IMG/VR virus record: IMGVR_UViG_2671180884_000016
Coordinates: 1 to 11,914 of that record
DNA length: 11,914 nt
Direction: 5' to 3' (one strand)
Source of the DNA: a virus
Lineage: Duplodnaviria; Heunggongvirae; Uroviricota; Caudoviricetes
A program made the translations under genes and the position numbers. The notes under the pieces were generated by a model. It did not search any database. It was not told the DNA's origin and worked only from the letters and a program-made list of their open reading frames with translations. Positions 1-10,600 of the stretch are shown here, one piece after another; the first letter of the stretch is position 1, and every line of letters starts with the position of its first letter.

Positions 1-270
1 AGAGATAAAGCCCTGCCGGTGCATCACTTTCCAGATGGCGCGAATTTTGGCGGTCACCGTACCCGGTTTTAAGGCCCGGTTAACCGGTTTCTGACGCACT
101 TTAAAACCGCGTTTTTTGAAAACATCCAGCACGCGGGATAACTCACCGGGTGACATATCCCGGCAGCTGGTTTTGCCGGTGGCTGCCAGTAGTACGAATG
201 TGTAGGTCTCATCATCCAGGGCAAGCTCGCGCTTTGCCACATGAATAGCGGATATCAGTTTCCCTCTCAT
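1..270 (-). CDS. gemA: GemA-like (Mu gp16 / DUF1018-type) protein, N-terminal 90 aa only; C-terminus lies beyond window start
   Basis: Reverse-complement translation of 1-270 gives MRGKLISAIHVAKRELALDDETYTFVLLAATGKTSCRDMSPGELSRVLDVFKKRGFKVRQKPVN..., with the I-x-x-IH-x-AK-x-x-L-x-LDD-x-TY motif recalled for Mu GemA-family proteins. ATG at 268-270 overlaps the upstream gene's TGA (ATGA). Confidence 0.6.
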   Translation of the reverse strand, partial: MRGKLISAIHVAKRELALDDETYTFVLLAATGKTSCRDMSPGELSRVLDVFKKRGFKVRQKPVNRALKPGTVTAKIRAIWKVMHRQGFIS

Positions 271-5425: not shown

Positions 5426-6358
5426 TCACACCTGTGAGAGTAATTCAGGGTTGGTATAAACCTCTTTAAAGGCCGCATTAATATGTTTTTCTGTCAGCGC
5501 CGCGCCTTCACCGCTGGCGGTGAGCCACGCCTGGTTAAGCGTATGTGTCAGAACGCGTAACGCTCCCGGCTTTTCAGCGATAGCCTGCATGACGGCCAGC
5601 TCGGCCTCACCACTGATCCCCCACGCCCTGGCAATGGCCAGCACATCCGCCTTTTTGGCCTTGCGAAGTTGTTTTGTACGGGCAAGACGGCTGAACAGGC
5701 GCGATAAATCATCAAAGGCGCGGCGTCCACCTTTAAACAATCCGCGCGGGTTACCAATAAGCACCATCCCGATCCCCGTGGCGTCCTGAATTGCCCGGAG
5801 TTGCTCCAGACCGTCAATACCAAGATGATCCGCCTCATCCACAATCACCAGTCCACGCGTTCCCATCAGGCGACGGCGGATGGCGCGGGATAATGCCCCT
5901 TTGTTCGCGCGGGTGTAATCAATCCCCAGCGCATCGGCCAGCTCCAGCAGACACTCCGTGACGCTGGAGTGCGCGGGTGACAGGGTGATCATCCAGGTGT
6001 TTGGTTGCTCCTGGCAGTAATTACGGGCAGTGGCCGTTTTACCCACACCCGGTACGCCCACAATAACGTTAATACAGCCCATCAGACGAACCGCCTGAAA
6101 CAGTGCGCGCAGCTCCTGGACTGTCTGCGTTTCCACAAACTGCGGCGGTTCCGGCAGTGCGCTTTGTTTATTCCAGTTCTCATACCAGGAACGCAGGGAA
6201 GCAGCCACAGCAGCGTTATCGCCTTTATATTTTCCCTTACGGAAAGCCGATAATGTGCCGTCGGAAATTCCCGCCTCTCTGGCGATGGCATACTGCGTCA
6301 GTACGCCGCCATCAATAAGTTCATCAATGGTCTTGATTACATCGTTAATATCAGTCAT
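5426..6358 (-). CDS. B: Mu B-like DNA transposition protein (AAA+ ATPase target-DNA activator)
   Basis: 310 aa. N-terminal HTH-like region, Walker A GVPGVGKT, Walker B-like LVIVDEADHL; directly downstream of the transposase as in Mu. SD GAGAGG upstream. Confidence 0.85.
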   Translation of the reverse strand: MTDINDVIKTIDELIDGGVLTQYAIAREAGISDGTLSAFRKGKYKGDNAAVAASLRSWYENWNKQSALPEPPQFVETQTVQELRALFQAVRLMGCINVIVGVPGVGKTATARNYCQEQPNTWMITLSPAHSSVTECLLELADALGIDYTRANKGALSRAIRRRLMGTRGLVIVDEADHLGIDGLEQLRAIQDATGIGMVLIGNPRGLFKGGRRAFDDLSRLFSRLARTKQLRKAKKADVLAIARAWGISGEAELAVMQAIAEKPGALRVLTHTLNQAWLTASGEGAALTEKHINAAFKEVYTNPELLSQV

Positions 6359-6396
6359 ATTATTAACCTCTCATTTGATACCTTGTTTAATCAAAT

Positions 6397-6430
6397 AACC
6401 TGAGTCGCCGCTCGGGTTATTTTTTTATTT
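6397..6430 (+). terminator. hairpin plus T-tract in the A-B intergenic spacer, best formed on the plus (antisense) strand
   Basis: aacctgag / ctcgggtt stem (8 bp, one G-U) with 6-nt loop, followed by atttttttattt on the plus strand. Confidence 0.3.
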
Positions 6431-8538
6431 CAGGCCAGCGGGTCATTTTCTTTTAATTTCGCTTCCAGCAACTGCAATCCCCGCTGGAAATTACGCTCGT
6501 ATTCTTCATCAGGTTCATCGTCAGCGACCGGTTGCTGAACGGTCACCGTATTACCCACAGGGCGGTATATGTTTTCCAGCCAGGGCTCCTGCGGCTTGTG
6601 CTCCAGCACGTTGACAACCTCATCCTCGGCATCACGGATTTTTTCCTCTGCGCGTTTACGCATGCCTTTAAGGCGTTGCTGCTGTTTGTAGTATTCCGCG
6701 CTAACCGGGAAGGCTTCGCGTTTATTACCGTCCCATACCGCCTCGCAAATCACGCTGCCATCCAGGCGACGTACGGTAATTCGTTCGGCATCATGAATGT
6801 CATAGCTGATAAGCACCTTACGACCATGCTCGTCACGCAGCTCGGGCGCGTAGTAAATATTATTCAGCCAGCGTATTTCACAGCGTCTTACAGGGCGTTC
6901 CACCATCGGCCGGAACATATCCCGCAGCTCAACATCGGACAGCCATTCAATTTCCGTGTCCTCTTCCGCCAGGCGTTTTTTTCTGAACTCCGCCGGGCTG
7001 TAATGCTTGCCGTTCGGCTTCACCGGTAATTCATCGTGCGGCCGGTTGTTGTACCACTCAACACCGTCACGAATGGCATCAATCAGTTCAGACCAGGACG
7101 GTAAATCACGCATCGCTGACTGCTGCCGGGCGTTCAGCCGTTTGCCCTGTTGCAGGGCAGTAAATGCCGAGCGTAAATCGCGGTTGGTTTTGCGTAACGT
7201 CTCGCGATCTGCACCTTTCCCGAAATAGGTGCGGTATTTACGGGCTATGCGCATCGGTAATGTGCGGTTAAGCCGTTCGATAATGCCTCGTCCCTGCGGA
7301 TTACCGGCAATCCCGGTCGGGTGATTAATCCCCAGTCGCGGCAGTATCCCCACAACCTCCTTATCCAGGATGTCGGCGGTTTCCCCGGAGCCGTTATCCG
7401 AGTAATACAGAAACGGTTTGCCGTGATGGCGAATGCCGTGCTGTATGGCACCGGCTACGGCGAAAACATTTTCAGCCAGGTCAAGGCTCCAGCCCACCAC
7501 AAAGCGCGTGCCACCGTCGATAACAAAGGTCACTTCCGGTGCAAATGGCCGACCGTGAACCGGGTGTGCGCATTTCAGCTTCATGCCGTGACCGTCACCA
7601 ATCCAGACATAATTCACCGGCATTTTTGACCAGTCGCGGCGCGTGAATCCCTCAAGCTGGCGGTATTCACTGCCGGTCACCCGGCCTTTTTGTTTCACCA
7701 CTTCCGGCAGTTTCTTCATTGCGCGGCGAATGGTGTCATAAGACGGCATGATATCGAGCATATAAGGCTCATCAGCGTGCCGGTGCTGCCATTCAGCGAC
7801 AAAATCCTCGTAAGCCTCGGTCATTGGTCGGCCGTTTGACTGGCGATACTGCGCCAGAAATTCGGGCAGCCAGTTAATATCTTCGGCTTTTATTTCCTGG
7901 CGCTTACCCGGTGCCAGTAAAAGCAGGCGTTCAGCGGCGTTCTGCGCCTTGTTAAAGGCCGCAATCCAGCGTTTCAGCGTTATTTCACTCAACGCACGGC
8001 TGTTTCCCTTTTTGGCGTTCGCCGTCTCAACCATTGCCACAATGCGCTCGTCCAGTTGCGAACGTGCCAGGTTGTCAACGATAAACCGGATAGCTTTCGC
8101 GCAGCTGAAACCGGGTTGTTGCGCGACTTTCATCACTTCGCTGACGATCGCGATTCGTGCATCAGCCACCTGGCGCTGGTTTTCAGTCAGGGCATTGAGG
8201 CGTTCGACCATCAGTTGTGGTGATCCGCGATATGCCTCCACCGCATCAACCACGTCAGATGAGCGTCTGGCCTTTGTCACCACCGGAGCCGGTGATTCAT
8301 CGGCTTTTTGCGTCATCAGTTGCAGGGCATAGCGTTCGCGTACTGCCTGCTGAACAGTTAAAGGCAAAGCTCCTATTTCACACTCTAAAACTTTCCCTTT
8401 TACCCCTGGTTTTAGCCGCGTTTTCCACGCTTCCCTCTTTGCTTTTTTGTGCAGACCTGCCAAAGAACTAGGTAGGTCACTGAATGAAATCAATTCAGTC
8501 ATTGCAACCCACATATTTCCTCCGCGCACGTCGTTCAT
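6430..8538 (-). CDS. A: Mu A-like DDE transposase (N-terminal repressor-like DNA-binding domain, central rve-type catalytic core, C-terminal domain)
   Basis: 702 aa; size and position (after ner, before B) match MuA. N-terminal ...SDLPSSLAGLHKKAKREAWKTR... parallels the adjacent repressor. Start may be the internal ATG at 8514 (MWVAMTEL); either start overlaps the ner 3' end. Confidence 0.9.
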   Translation of the reverse strand: MNDVRGGNMWVAMTELISFSDLPSSLAGLHKKAKREAWKTRLKPGVKGKVLECEIGALPLTVQQAVRERYALQLMTQKADESPAPVVTKARRSSDVVDAVEAYRGSPQLMVERLNALTENQRQVADARIAIVSEVMKVAQQPGFSCAKAIRFIVDNLARSQLDERIVAMVETANAKKGNSRALSEITLKRWIAAFNKAQNAAERLLLLAPGKRQEIKAEDINWLPEFLAQYRQSNGRPMTEAYEDFVAEWQHRHADEPYMLDIMPSYDTIRRAMKKLPEVVKQKGRVTGSEYRQLEGFTRRDWSKMPVNYVWIGDGHGMKLKCAHPVHGRPFAPEVTFVIDGGTRFVVGWSLDLAENVFAVAGAIQHGIRHHGKPFLYYSDNGSGETADILDKEVVGILPRLGINHPTGIAGNPQGRGIIERLNRTLPMRIARKYRTYFGKGADRETLRKTNRDLRSAFTALQQGKRLNARQQSAMRDLPSWSELIDAIRDGVEWYNNRPHDELPVKPNGKHYSPAEFRKKRLAEEDTEIEWLSDVELRDMFRPMVERPVRRCEIRWLNNIYYAPELRDEHGRKVLISYDIHDAERITVRRLDGSVICEAVWDGNKREAFPVSAEYYKQQQRLKGMRKRAEEKIRDAEDEVVNVLEHKPQEPWLENIYRPVGNTVTVQQPVADDEPDEEYERNFQRGLQLLEAKLKENDPLA

Positions 8539-8740
8539 ATCTAGTAGGCCAAATAACCTGTGGCTCTACACCTATAGCCCTAGCAATTATCTTTTCACCT
8601 TTAGGGTAGGGAACTCGCAAAGCATTACCCAAAGTCCTAGGCTGCAAATTATTTTCCCTTGATAAACGTGACAAATTGGTATCGCGTTTTTCTAAGGCTG
8701 CCTTTATATCGGCGGAAGACCAATCTTCAATAAGACTCAC
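8495..8740 (-). CDS. ner: Ner-like DNA-binding transcriptional regulator (Mu Ner / Nlp family)
   Basis: 81 aa, (M)SLIEDWSSADIKAALEKRDTNLSRLSRENNLQPRTLGNALRVPYPKGEKIIARAIGVEPQVIWPTRY matches the conserved Ner/Nlp pattern (DWH.ADI...L...PKGE.IIA.A.G..P..IWPSRY). GTG start with SD AGGGGG 5 nt upstream. Confidence 0.8.
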   Translation of the reverse strand: MSLIEDWSSADIKAALEKRDTNLSRLSRENNLQPRTLGNALRVPYPKGEKIIARAIGVEPQVIWPTRYERRARRKYVGCND

Positions 8741-8824: not shown

Positions 8825-8853
8825 ATGTTAGATATTAACTTAGTAAATATCAA
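8825..8853 (-). promoter_or_regulatory. candidate early promoter for ner-A-B (minus strand: -35 TTGATA, 17-bp spacer, -10 TAACAT)
   Basis: Hexamers read by eye on the minus strand; about 85 nt upstream of the ner GTG. Confidence 0.25.
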
Positions 8854-8860
8854 CTGGTTA
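8848..8860. promoter_or_regulatory. IHF-like binding site within the operator region
   Basis: tatcaactggtta fits the IHF consensus WATCAANNNNTTR; Mu has an IHF site in its operator region. Confidence 0.35.
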
Positions 8861-8957: not shown

Positions 8958-9476
8958 ATGGAGTTTGATATGATCCTTGACCAAGAATGGATCCTTGCCA
9001 GTGACTTGTTGGGGGTTGGAGGTCTTCCTTCATCTCTGGCTGGGCTTCATAAACGAGCAAAAAATGAAGGATGGGAAAAACGTTCGGTAACTACACCTGG
9101 TATCAGAGGGAGAGCATTTGCCTACCGTTTAAGCGACTTACCTGCACATGTTGTTTCCATCATTACAGGTAGTGCAGAAATAAAACACCAGCCCCCTCAA
9201 AAGAACGGTGGCAATAGCGAGTTGCTCGAACTCATCGACACTTTGAGCCAAGAAGAGCAAGAATTAGTTATTTACACCTTGAGAAGGAAAGGGGTAGAAA
9301 AATTGCTGGAATTCTGCAATCAAGAGAATCAAGAGTTGATCGCTTTAACAGGTATTCGACGCCTGGCAGCATTGAGCCTTAATAATTTATCAGATCAAAA
9401 GGTTAGAGAGATTTTCGAGGGAGATGAAACCAAGGATCATCATTTCAATTTAACCCATAAAGAAGCCAAAGCGTAA
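8958..9476 (+). CDS. c: Mu c-type repressor (lysogeny maintenance); likely true start at ATG 8970
   Basis: 172 aa, divergent from ner. N-terminal ...GGLPSSLAGLHKRAKNEGWEKR... matches the transposase N-terminus, the known MuA/Mu-repressor relationship. GGAG SD 6 nt before the ATG at 8970. Confidence 0.75.
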   Translation: MEFDMILDQEWILASDLLGVGGLPSSLAGLHKRAKNEGWEKRSVTTPGIRGRAFAYRLSDLPAHVVSIITGSAEIKHQPPQKNGGNSELLELIDTLSQEEQELVIYTLRRKGVEKLLEFCNQENQELIALTGIRRLAALSLNNLSDQKVREIFEGDETKDHHFNLTHKEAKA

Positions 9477-9599: not shown

Positions 9600-9775
9600 A
9601 GTATGTGCAGTATCAAATTTGTTGCCGATACCTTAATTTTATACCGGATTTTATTTAATCAGTATCAAAACTAAACAACCTCCAGAATCATCGATCACCT
9701 GTTTTATTTCAGTATCTTACAGGTGATTTCACCTCCTTTCACTAAAACCCTTGTCGGTATCAAATGATTTACCTG
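9600..9775. repeat. prophage left-end region with four GTATC(A/T)-containing repeats at about 50-bp spacing (candidate transposase end-binding sites, attL-like)
   Basis: cagtatcaaatttgttgccgatacc (about 9608), cagtatcaaaactaaacaacc (about 9660), cagtatcttacaggtgatttcacc (about 9710), cggtatcaaatgatttacc (about 9755); AT-rich, non-coding, between the c stop and the junction. Confidence 0.5.
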
Positions 9776-10022
9776 GTTACACTCTGCACTGCCGGGCGAT
9801 ATCCTGCTGTGCTGCTTCGGCGCATCGGTGGCTAATCATGCCGCCATTTACTGCGGCAACGGTGAACTGCTTCACCATCTGCCTGAACAACTGAGTAAAC
9901 GGGAGAGGTATTCCGAAAAATGGCAACGACGAACGCATTCTGTCTGGCGTCACCGCCACTGGCACGCATCTGCCTTCACGGGGATTTACAACGATTTGGC
10001 CGCCGCTTCAGCCTGTATGTGA
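9768..10022 (+). pseudogene. K: 5'-truncated remnant of lambdoid tail assembly protein K (C-terminal about 84 codons only)
   Basis: In-frame translation ...LHSALPGDILLCCFGASVANHAAIYCGNGELLHHLPEQLSKRERYSEKWQRRTHSVWRHRHWHASAFTGIYNDLAAAS matches the lambda K C-terminus as recalled. An in-frame stop at 9765-9767 lies immediately upstream, with no ATG and no N-terminal K coding sequence. Confidence 0.7.
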
Positions 10023-10600
10023 ACACGGCGGCGGAAGCCATCCGCGCCCTGTCGCTGCAGGTGCCGGGATTCCGCCGTCAGATGAACGAAGGCTGGTACC
10101 AGATACGCATTGCCGGTGAGGATACGGCACCGGAGGCGGTGTATGCCCGCCTTCACGAACCACTGGGTGAGGGAACGGTTATCCATATTGTGCCGCGACT
10201 GGCCGGAGCCGGAAAGGGCGGACTACAGATTGTGCTGGGGGCAGCTGCCATTGTGGGGTCTTTCTTCACGGCCGGAGCATCAATGGCGTTATGGGGTTCA
10301 GCCCTGGCAGCCGGTGGTTTTTCTGCCACCACGATGCTGTTTTCACTGGGTGCCAGCATGATACTGGGCGGTGTGGCCCAGATGCTGGCCCCGAAGGCAA
10401 AAACACCGGATTACCGCGCAACGGATAACGGCAGACAGAACACGTATTTTTCCTCACTGGACAACATGATTGCCCAGGGCAACCCGATGCCGGTGCCCTA
10501 CGGTGAAATGCTGGTTGGTTCACGACGTATCTCTCAGGACATCAGCACCCGTGATGAAGGCGGAGACGGAAAGGTGGTGGTTATTGGTCGACAGGGATAA
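9920..10600 (+). CDS. I: lambdoid tail assembly protein I
   Basis: 226 aa, MATTNAFCLASPPLARICLHGDLQRFGRR...GKQNTYFSSLDNM..., closely parallels lambda gpI; overlaps the K 3' end as in lambda-like tail modules. Confidence 0.9.
   Translation: MATTNAFCLASPPLARICLHGDLQRFGRRFSLYVNTAAEAIRALSLQVPGFRRQMNEGWYQIRIAGEDTAPEAVYARLHEPLGEGTVIHIVPRLAGAGKGGLQIVLGAAAIVGSFFTAGASMALWGSALAAGGFSATTMLFSLGASMILGGVAQMLAPKAKTPDYRATDNGRQNTYFSSLDNMIAQGNPMPVPYGEMLVGSRRISQDISTRDEGGDGKVVVIGRQG

Follow-up and report, generated by a model that had tools for sequence, protein, structure and literature searches.

The window (the whole 11,914-nt stretch that was analysed) carries genes for a MuB-like protein, a MuA-like transposase, a Ner-like protein and a Mu c-type repressor, a cluster of short repeats beyond the repressor gene, the 3' part of one tail gene of a lambdoid prophage, and a second tail gene (Table 1). 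The last bases of the Mu-like element are ...CCTGGTTACA, ending at 9781, and an intact gene K aligns from 9782, with the prophage/host junction at 9781/9782. The region studied here, which holds the repeats, is the final 175 bp of the prophage, and the element sequence through ...GGTTACA is common to seven other insertions of the Sp18 family.

Table 1. Coordinates of features at the prophage left end and in related loci (window positions unless stated otherwise).
Feature	Position	Strand	Remarks
MuB-like AAA+ target-activator protein	5426..6358	-	Phage-MuB_C, AAA_22 (Pfam)
MuA-like DDE transposase	6430..8538	-	702-aa ORF; Mu-transpos_C and Mu Iα-type HTH (Pfam)
Iα-like domain	transposase residues 9-67
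Iβ-like domain (predicted)	transposase residues about 105-208		co-varies with end motif
Iγ-like domain (predicted)	transposase residues about 218-275
Ner-like protein	8495-8740	-	Pfam
Mu c-type repressor	8958..9476	+	Iα-like DNA-binding domain (Pfam)
Site L3 (predicted)	9608..9633	-	core TTTGATACTG at 9608-9617, 165-174 nt from end
L3 conserved proximal half	9618-9627	-	CGGCAACAAA
Site L2 (predicted)	9660..9685	-	core TTTGATACTG at 9660-9669, 113-122 nt from end
L2 terminus-proximal half	9670-9683	-	GGAGGTTGTTTAGT
L1-L2 spacer element	9694..9727 (arms 9694-9702/9719-9727)	.	perfect 9-bp inverted repeat ATCACCTGT/ACAGGTGAT; encloses degenerate 9710-9719 motif
Site L1 (predicted) and terminus	9755..9781	-	inward reading TGTAACCAGGTAAATCA-TTTGATACCG; end GGTTACA
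L1 core	9755-9764	-	18-27 nt from end; terminal ...CA-3' at 9780-9781
Host flank, 3' part of interrupted lambdoid tail gene K (C40 peptidase)	9782..9919	+
Tail assembly gene I of lambdoid prophage	9920-10600		after gene K remnant
4-bp duplication junctions	L001:3821-3824 and 43110-43113		also L003, L004, L010, L011, L012-L017

Judged by its sequence, the element belongs to the family of prophage Sp18 of E. coli O157 Sakai. From residue 81 on, its transposase is 92-100% identical to that of Sakai Sp18, and the O157:H7 strain F8492 carries the same prophage, 98% identical, in ypdA. A right-end probe matches 233 of 5426 complete E. coli genomes, and the last 88 bp of the left end likewise match 233, the two counts having been taken separately and not paired by genome. 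Sakai (NC_002695.2) is among the matching genomes, and the matching region is annotated there as "prophage Sp18, Mu-like phage". The full left end, as it stands in the window, occurs in only 13 of the 5426 genomes, the left ends diverging past the 88 bp according to immunity type.

Insertion sites of the Sp18 family are many and unrelated. In the window, tail gene K of a lambdoid prophage is broken by the Mu-like prophage (9782-10600), while other members have entered portal genes, tail-tip genes, and genes of Stx phages; insertion of one prophage into another is common in the family. E. coli SW070917 was considered as a same-site insertion and rejected, as it carries a different insertion adjoining an intact gene K. 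In two Sp18-type prophages, RefSeq annotates a "tRNA-OTHER" in the head-gene region (L003:26273-26352 and L004:25563-25650).

The transposase matches the Mu-transposase C-terminal domain (PF09299, 1.5e-17), shows weak rve matches as well as retroviral integrase matches at residues 369-432, and is matched at residues 8-67 by PDB entries 1tns and 1g4d. The transposase and the repressor both contain PF02316. Overall identity to MuA is 21%, and sequence searches detected only the Iα domain and the integrase-like core, not the Iβ and Iγ domains of MuA. A structural model of moderate quality (pLDDT 71) predicts Iβ- and Iγ-like end-binding folds, the Foldseek matches for which were not significant (E 0.46 and 2.8). 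The start of the 702-aa open reading frame overlaps the Ner-like gene (8514-8538). RefSeq starts the relatives at M9, the F8492 copy beginning MWVAMTE with a length of 694 aa, and on the basis of that start the true transposase may have 694 aa.

Repeated Sites at the Left End

The plus strand carries (C/T)(A/G)GTATCAAA at 9608, 9660, and 9755, with a degenerate copy at 9710. Written out, these are CAGTATCAAA at 9608-9617 and 9660-9669, CGGTATCAAA at 9755-9764, and CAGTATCTTA at 9710-9719 for the degenerate copy. The window has four exact copies of the 8-mer GTATCAAA compared to 0.49 expected, a count reached by one of 200 shuffles, and three of these fall within a 155-bp stretch of a single strand in the terminal 175 bp. 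Read inward from the left terminus, the three good copies present the core TTTGATACYG at the distances listed in Table 1, and are referred to here as L1, L2, and L3.

An earlier sequence-only reading had described four related motifs at roughly 50-bp intervals, and all four are located where it placed them. Three of these hold as predicted true sites, but the copy at 9710 is degenerate, and the regular interval did not stand: an independent repeat finder placed the three good copies in a single family, spaced 52 and 95 bp apart. A 30-nt site matrix gave the highest score in the window to L1 (34.6), followed by L3 (24.2) and L2 (14.5), with 7.6 for the next best position; the matrix was built from 16 distinct sites that include L1-L3 of the window, so that their high scores are partly circular. 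Taken together with the evidence on the fourth copy given below, the left end is predicted to have three genuine sites, not four. The same reading had noted a palindrome at the innermost motif. The sequence GTATC (9610-9614)...GATAC (9627-9631) does exist at L3, but only in this immunity type, and a functional role was rejected as the palindrome is absent from the other immunity types.

The Right End and Conservation across Immunity Types

As the window holds the left end only, the right end was read in the related prophages of F8492, 380-94, 102651, and Sakai. It begins TATAGCGCGGCGATTTT and carries the core TTTGATACYG in inverted orientation at 18-27, 40-49, and 75-84 from the terminus (R1-R3). 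In four complete prophages of ~39 kb, TTTGATAC has eight copies, compared to ~0.5 expected per strand. Six of the eight are end sites, three of them forward at 18/113/165 on the left and three reversed at 18/40/75 on the right. The two extra copies lie in the A-B intergenic region (window 6374-6381) and in mid-genome (~20 kb into L001, L003, L004, and L010); all four prophages have kept both, a number in line with chance, and the sequences beside them are unlike those flanking the end sites.

The region is AT-rich (GC about 0.38), and the chance-like rate of the two further copies elsewhere in the prophage might suggest that the clustering itself is a matter of chance in AT-rich intergenic DNA. 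We regard this as having virtually no probability, given that six of eight copies fall within the terminal 175 and 85 bp in the correct orientation, that their positions are kept to the base across unalignable DNA, and that the count in the window was so rarely reached in the shuffled sequences.

The positional conservation is best seen between immunity types. The terminal 88 bp of attL is the sole left-end block common across the 233 genomes. In 380-94, 102651, and Sakai, the repressor and Ner genes are unrelated and attL positions 88-200 are unalignable, yet the L2 and L3 cores still lie at exactly 113 and 165. Five left ends, drawn from at least three immunity types, have the L2 core at an identical distance though the flanking DNA is unalignable, and the L3 arrangement, CGGCRAMAMW followed by the core, is kept in Sakai, 380-94, 102651, and the Salmonella relatives. 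Site positions are thus identical in at least three immunity types with unalignable DNA between the sites. A change of immunity type alters the repressor and residues 1-70 of the transposase, but not the end motif; residues 1-40 are 2-18% identical between immunity types that have the same motif at the same positions.

These comparisons bear on whether the repeats are operators of the repressor or the Ner-like protein, controlling transcription out of or into the left end. The sites do lie just downstream of the repressor gene, and the repressor shares a DNA-binding fold with the transposase N-terminus. Against this, the same motif keeps the same positions despite unrelated repressor, Ner, and transposase Iα domains, and it also occurs at the far right end adjoining mom, where no immunity function would be expected. 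Since the motif is independent of immunity type, the operator reading is counted out as highly improbable. Window positions 9608-9781 are instead very probably the attL, or left transposition end, of a Mu-like transposable prophage in the Sp18 family, with three predicted sites for its own transposase.

The Spacer between L1 and L2

The degenerate motif at 9710 is tied to the other copies solely via the 8-mer TCAGTATC in the output of the repeat finder. It was rejected as a genuine site on four grounds: its GATAC is GATGC in strain 380-94, it lies outside the 12 best matrix scores in the window (<1.3 compared to 14.5-34.6 for L1-L3), it is without a counterpart in the sister lineage described below, and it is offset by 5 bp from the nearest sequence resembling a proximal half. 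The motif is enclosed by the perfect inverted repeat at 9694-9727, which has a fold z-score of -5.1. A terminator role for this repeat was rejected, as it is without a T-run and a terminator scan found none. Judged from these features, the spacer element with the fourth motif is probably not a standard transposase site, and both the fourth motif and the L3 palindrome are probably incidental. The inverted repeat falls inside the 88-bp block conserved across immunity types. In relatives, AGGTGA-like half-sites recur in the L1-L2 spacer.

The Mu pac signal lies inside attL between L1 and L2. The repeats, or part of the region, might accordingly serve DNA packaging, and both the position of the Mu signal and the fact that no left-end block other than the terminal 88 bp, which includes the 9-bp inverted repeat, is conserved between immunity types speak for such a role. 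On the other hand, the TTTGATAC cores are inverted at the two ends and L2 and L3 are outside the 88-bp block, which points to transposition and not to one-ended packaging. At most, packaging could explain the spacer that holds the fourth motif (9694-9727) and none of the three cores; as an account of the repeats we consider it very unlikely. The inverted repeat itself could be a packaging or host-factor site, while L1-L3 remain best read as predicted sites for the transposase.

Termini and Target-Site Duplication

Exactly four bases are shared across the element in eight of eight insertions, seven of the Sp18 type and one of the sister lineage (TCAG, GGTG, GGGG, TAAA, AGAC, TTCT, GTAA, and TTCA). 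The TCAG duplication was confirmed by an intact ypdA. A 5-bp duplication was rejected, as shifting the termini by one base in either direction gives five shared bases in at most one of the eight insertions. The corresponding duplications are 5 bp in Mu and 6 bp in B3 (PMC8705779; PMC3362531). Sp18-type elements terminate in CA-3' on the left (TG/CA) and in TA-3' on the right, and in the sister lineage the termini of E. coli VL40 are TA at both ends, with the left ends of the Salmonella relatives likewise beginning TA. For the insertion in the window, the predicted duplication is CTCT (9782-9785), with a predicted right end of ...CCTGTCCTCT/TATAGCGCGG joined at the slash.

Co-variation of the End Motif with a Transposase Segment

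A transposase search of genome contigs gave two loci of a sister class, and the sample was widened by protein search and contig look-ups. The transposases of the Shigella (SFBU1023) and E. coli VL40 relatives are 72% identical to that of the window. In this sister lineage (VL40, Shigella, and Salmonella), a different core, TTCAAGATAA, lies at 18/89/141 on the left; in VL40, the sole complete sister prophage read, it is present at 18/40/75 on the right as well, and the rest of the 43-kb locus has no copy. The sister prophages resemble the Sp18 type in the right-end layout, the 17-nt offset from terminus to core, the 52-bp L2-L3 spacing, the 4-bp duplication, and a transposase core that is 85-95% identical. 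They differ in the core motif (TTCAAGATAA as opposed to TTTGATACYG), in an L1-L2 spacing of 71 bp, in having TA at both termini, and in an Iβ-like segment that is only 44-51% identical.

This last difference follows the motif. Transposase residues 111-205 partition exactly by motif class, with 71-100% and 72-78% identity within the two classes and 44-51% between them, whereas residues 206-300 are 75-97% identical whatever the motif class and the identity of residues 1-70 varies with immunity type. The Salmonella relatives are split between the two classes, and two of them, P0007 and P0015, have different motifs with transposases that are 97% identical in residues 206-300 and 51% in residues 111-205. 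The segment of about residues 111-205 (window 7924-8208, minus strand), which has a predicted Iβ-like fold, behaves as an exchangeable module that switches with the core motif. The proximal half of L1 is alike in both classes (AGGTRAWTTA).

The replacement of the motif also bears on whether the repeats are sites of a host architectural protein, namely IHF (consensus WATCAANNNNTTR), that bends the end rather than sites bound by the transposase. TATCAA lies inside every GTATCAAA and is also in the IHF consensus, and HU and IHF act at the Mu ends and the Mu operator region (PMC3820752). The full consensus is nevertheless absent from 9600-9781, its sole match in the window being at 8848-8860. The sister motif TTCAAGATAA is without WATCAA, and its replacement tracks the transposase segment and not the host. 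The exact distances from both termini and the inverted symmetry are moreover those expected of transposase sites, and the IHF reading is accordingly held to be highly unlikely. The single full match, TATCAACTGGTTA, lies in the repressor-Ner intergenic region, as does the IHF site of Mu; it is statistically weak, with 74 of 200 shuffles giving at least one match.

MuA binds the ends through its Iβ and Iγ domains (PMC3362531), and in TnsB, which is similar in structure, positions 5-19 from the end are contacted by Iγ and the linker and positions 20-30 by Iβ (PMC9371665). The latter agrees with a distal core at 18-27. The simplest reading, which draws on six lineages and on this analogy, is that recognition of the distal core falls to the Iβ-like segment and that of the proximal half to the conserved Iγ-like segment.

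Proposed Mechanism and Comparison with Mu

A picture of how the ends may work comes from the sites and their inverted counterparts at the opposite end, from the conservation of the sites, and from their co-variation with one transposase segment of Iβ-like fold. Each of L1-L3 would be a bipartite site of about 20-24 bp, in which a weaker terminus-proximal half, of the AGGTRA type in L1 and L2 and of the CGGCAA type in L3 and R3, precedes a strongly conserved terminus-distal core, TTTGATAC(C/T)(G/A). On the model of Mu, monomers of the transposase would bind at L1-L3 and at the inverted R1-R3, and the two ends would be paired in a transpososome. Cleavage would then follow the terminal ...A-3', at 17 nt on the outer side of the cores of L1 and R1, and the cut ends would be joined to target DNA. 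We infer from the likeness to Mu that assembly follows the Mu pathway.

In Mu, read directly from AF083977, the left end has its cores (YRCGAAAR) at 19-27, 124-132, and 165-173; the right end has them at 19-27 and 41-50, and its R3 occupies 56-77 in inverted orientation. Both elements have three sites per end with the ends mutually inverted, a first core starting 18-19 nt from the terminus, R1 and R2 22 bp apart, a long spacer that parts L1 from L2 and L3, an L3 at about 165, and a left end terminating in ...CA-3'. They also share the repressor-ner-A-B gene order adjoining attL, a repressor gene transcribed toward the left end, an Iα-type transposase N-terminus in common with the repressor, and, according to the structural model, Iβ/Iγ-like folds. 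The resemblance to the multiple MuA sites of attL proposed in the sequence-only reading is therefore borne out (18/113/165 and 18/40/75 compared to 19/124/165 and 19/41 in Mu), and the opposite end, which it had suggested comparing, carries the core three times in inverted orientation in related prophages. The element boundary likewise falls at the edge of the region it had singled out.

The recognition sequence, by contrast, is different. The core TTTGATACYG has no sequence similarity to the 22-bp Mu consensus (...YRCGAAAR), and this, together with the low identity to MuA noted above, agrees with the earlier proposal of a divergent Mu-like lineage with its own end sequence. By these comparisons, the predicted layout is nearly that of Mu and the recognition sequence is not. 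R3 is direct here and 35 bp from R2, whereas in Mu it is inverted and adjacent, so the higher-order architecture may differ. The right terminus is TA-3' instead of CA-3', and the target duplication is 4 bp instead of 5.

Compared to Sakai Sp18, the right end is identical, L1 is near-identical and shares its core, and L2 and L3 have theirs at the same positions. The window element differs from Sp18 in its repressor, Ner, transposase Iα domain, and attL DNA beyond 88 bp, and in its location in lambdoid gene K, Sp18 being inserted in sorM. The TnsB elements of Tn7/CAST differ in being transposons with TnsA/C/D or a CRISPR module and not phages, and their end sites are without sequence similarity to those described here.

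Significance of the Sp18-Type Ends

End sites as such are expected for a Mu-like phage. According to the statement in the KS10 paper, which cites Morgan et al. 2002 (J Mol Biol 317:337), the number of putative transposase-binding sites is six in Mu, FluMu, Pnm1, and Sp18 (PMC2628397). As six sites are credited to Sp18 in that statement, the feature is already known in outline, and the sequence-only reading is, to the extent of that statement, a correct rediscovery. Papers on SfMu, Pseudomonas saltoviruses, "grounded prophages", and the O157 prophage pool contain nothing on Sp18 ends or on duplication length. The 4-bp duplication and the two specificity classes were not found stated in the literature searched, the scope of which excluded the primary report of Morgan et al. 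2002. Three points may be new, each in a modest way: that site positions stay exactly the same from one immunity type to another, that there are two specificity classes co-varying with the Iβ-like module, and that the duplication is 4 bp long.

The sites mark precisely where the element ends and which machinery acts in cis in a transposable prophage family found in ~4% of complete E. coli genomes, and many of the genomes that carry the family are those of Shiga-toxin producers. Knowledge of the sites allows precise annotation of prophage ends and the design of mini-elements with a specificity orthogonal to that of Mu. The two end motifs paired with two Iβ-like modules also provide a natural test of how MuA-type transposases read their ends. 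We tentatively raise the possibility that the Sp18-like prophages of Enterobacteriaceae form a mechanistically distinct Mu-like branch, with a duplication of 4 bp rather than 5 or 6, tolerance of TA-3' termini, and at least two end-specificity classes in which the Iβ-like module and the distal core of all six sites have been exchanged together (TTTGATACYG and TTCAAGATAA). If this were true, the joint exchange of motif and module might stop co-resident prophages from mobilising each other.
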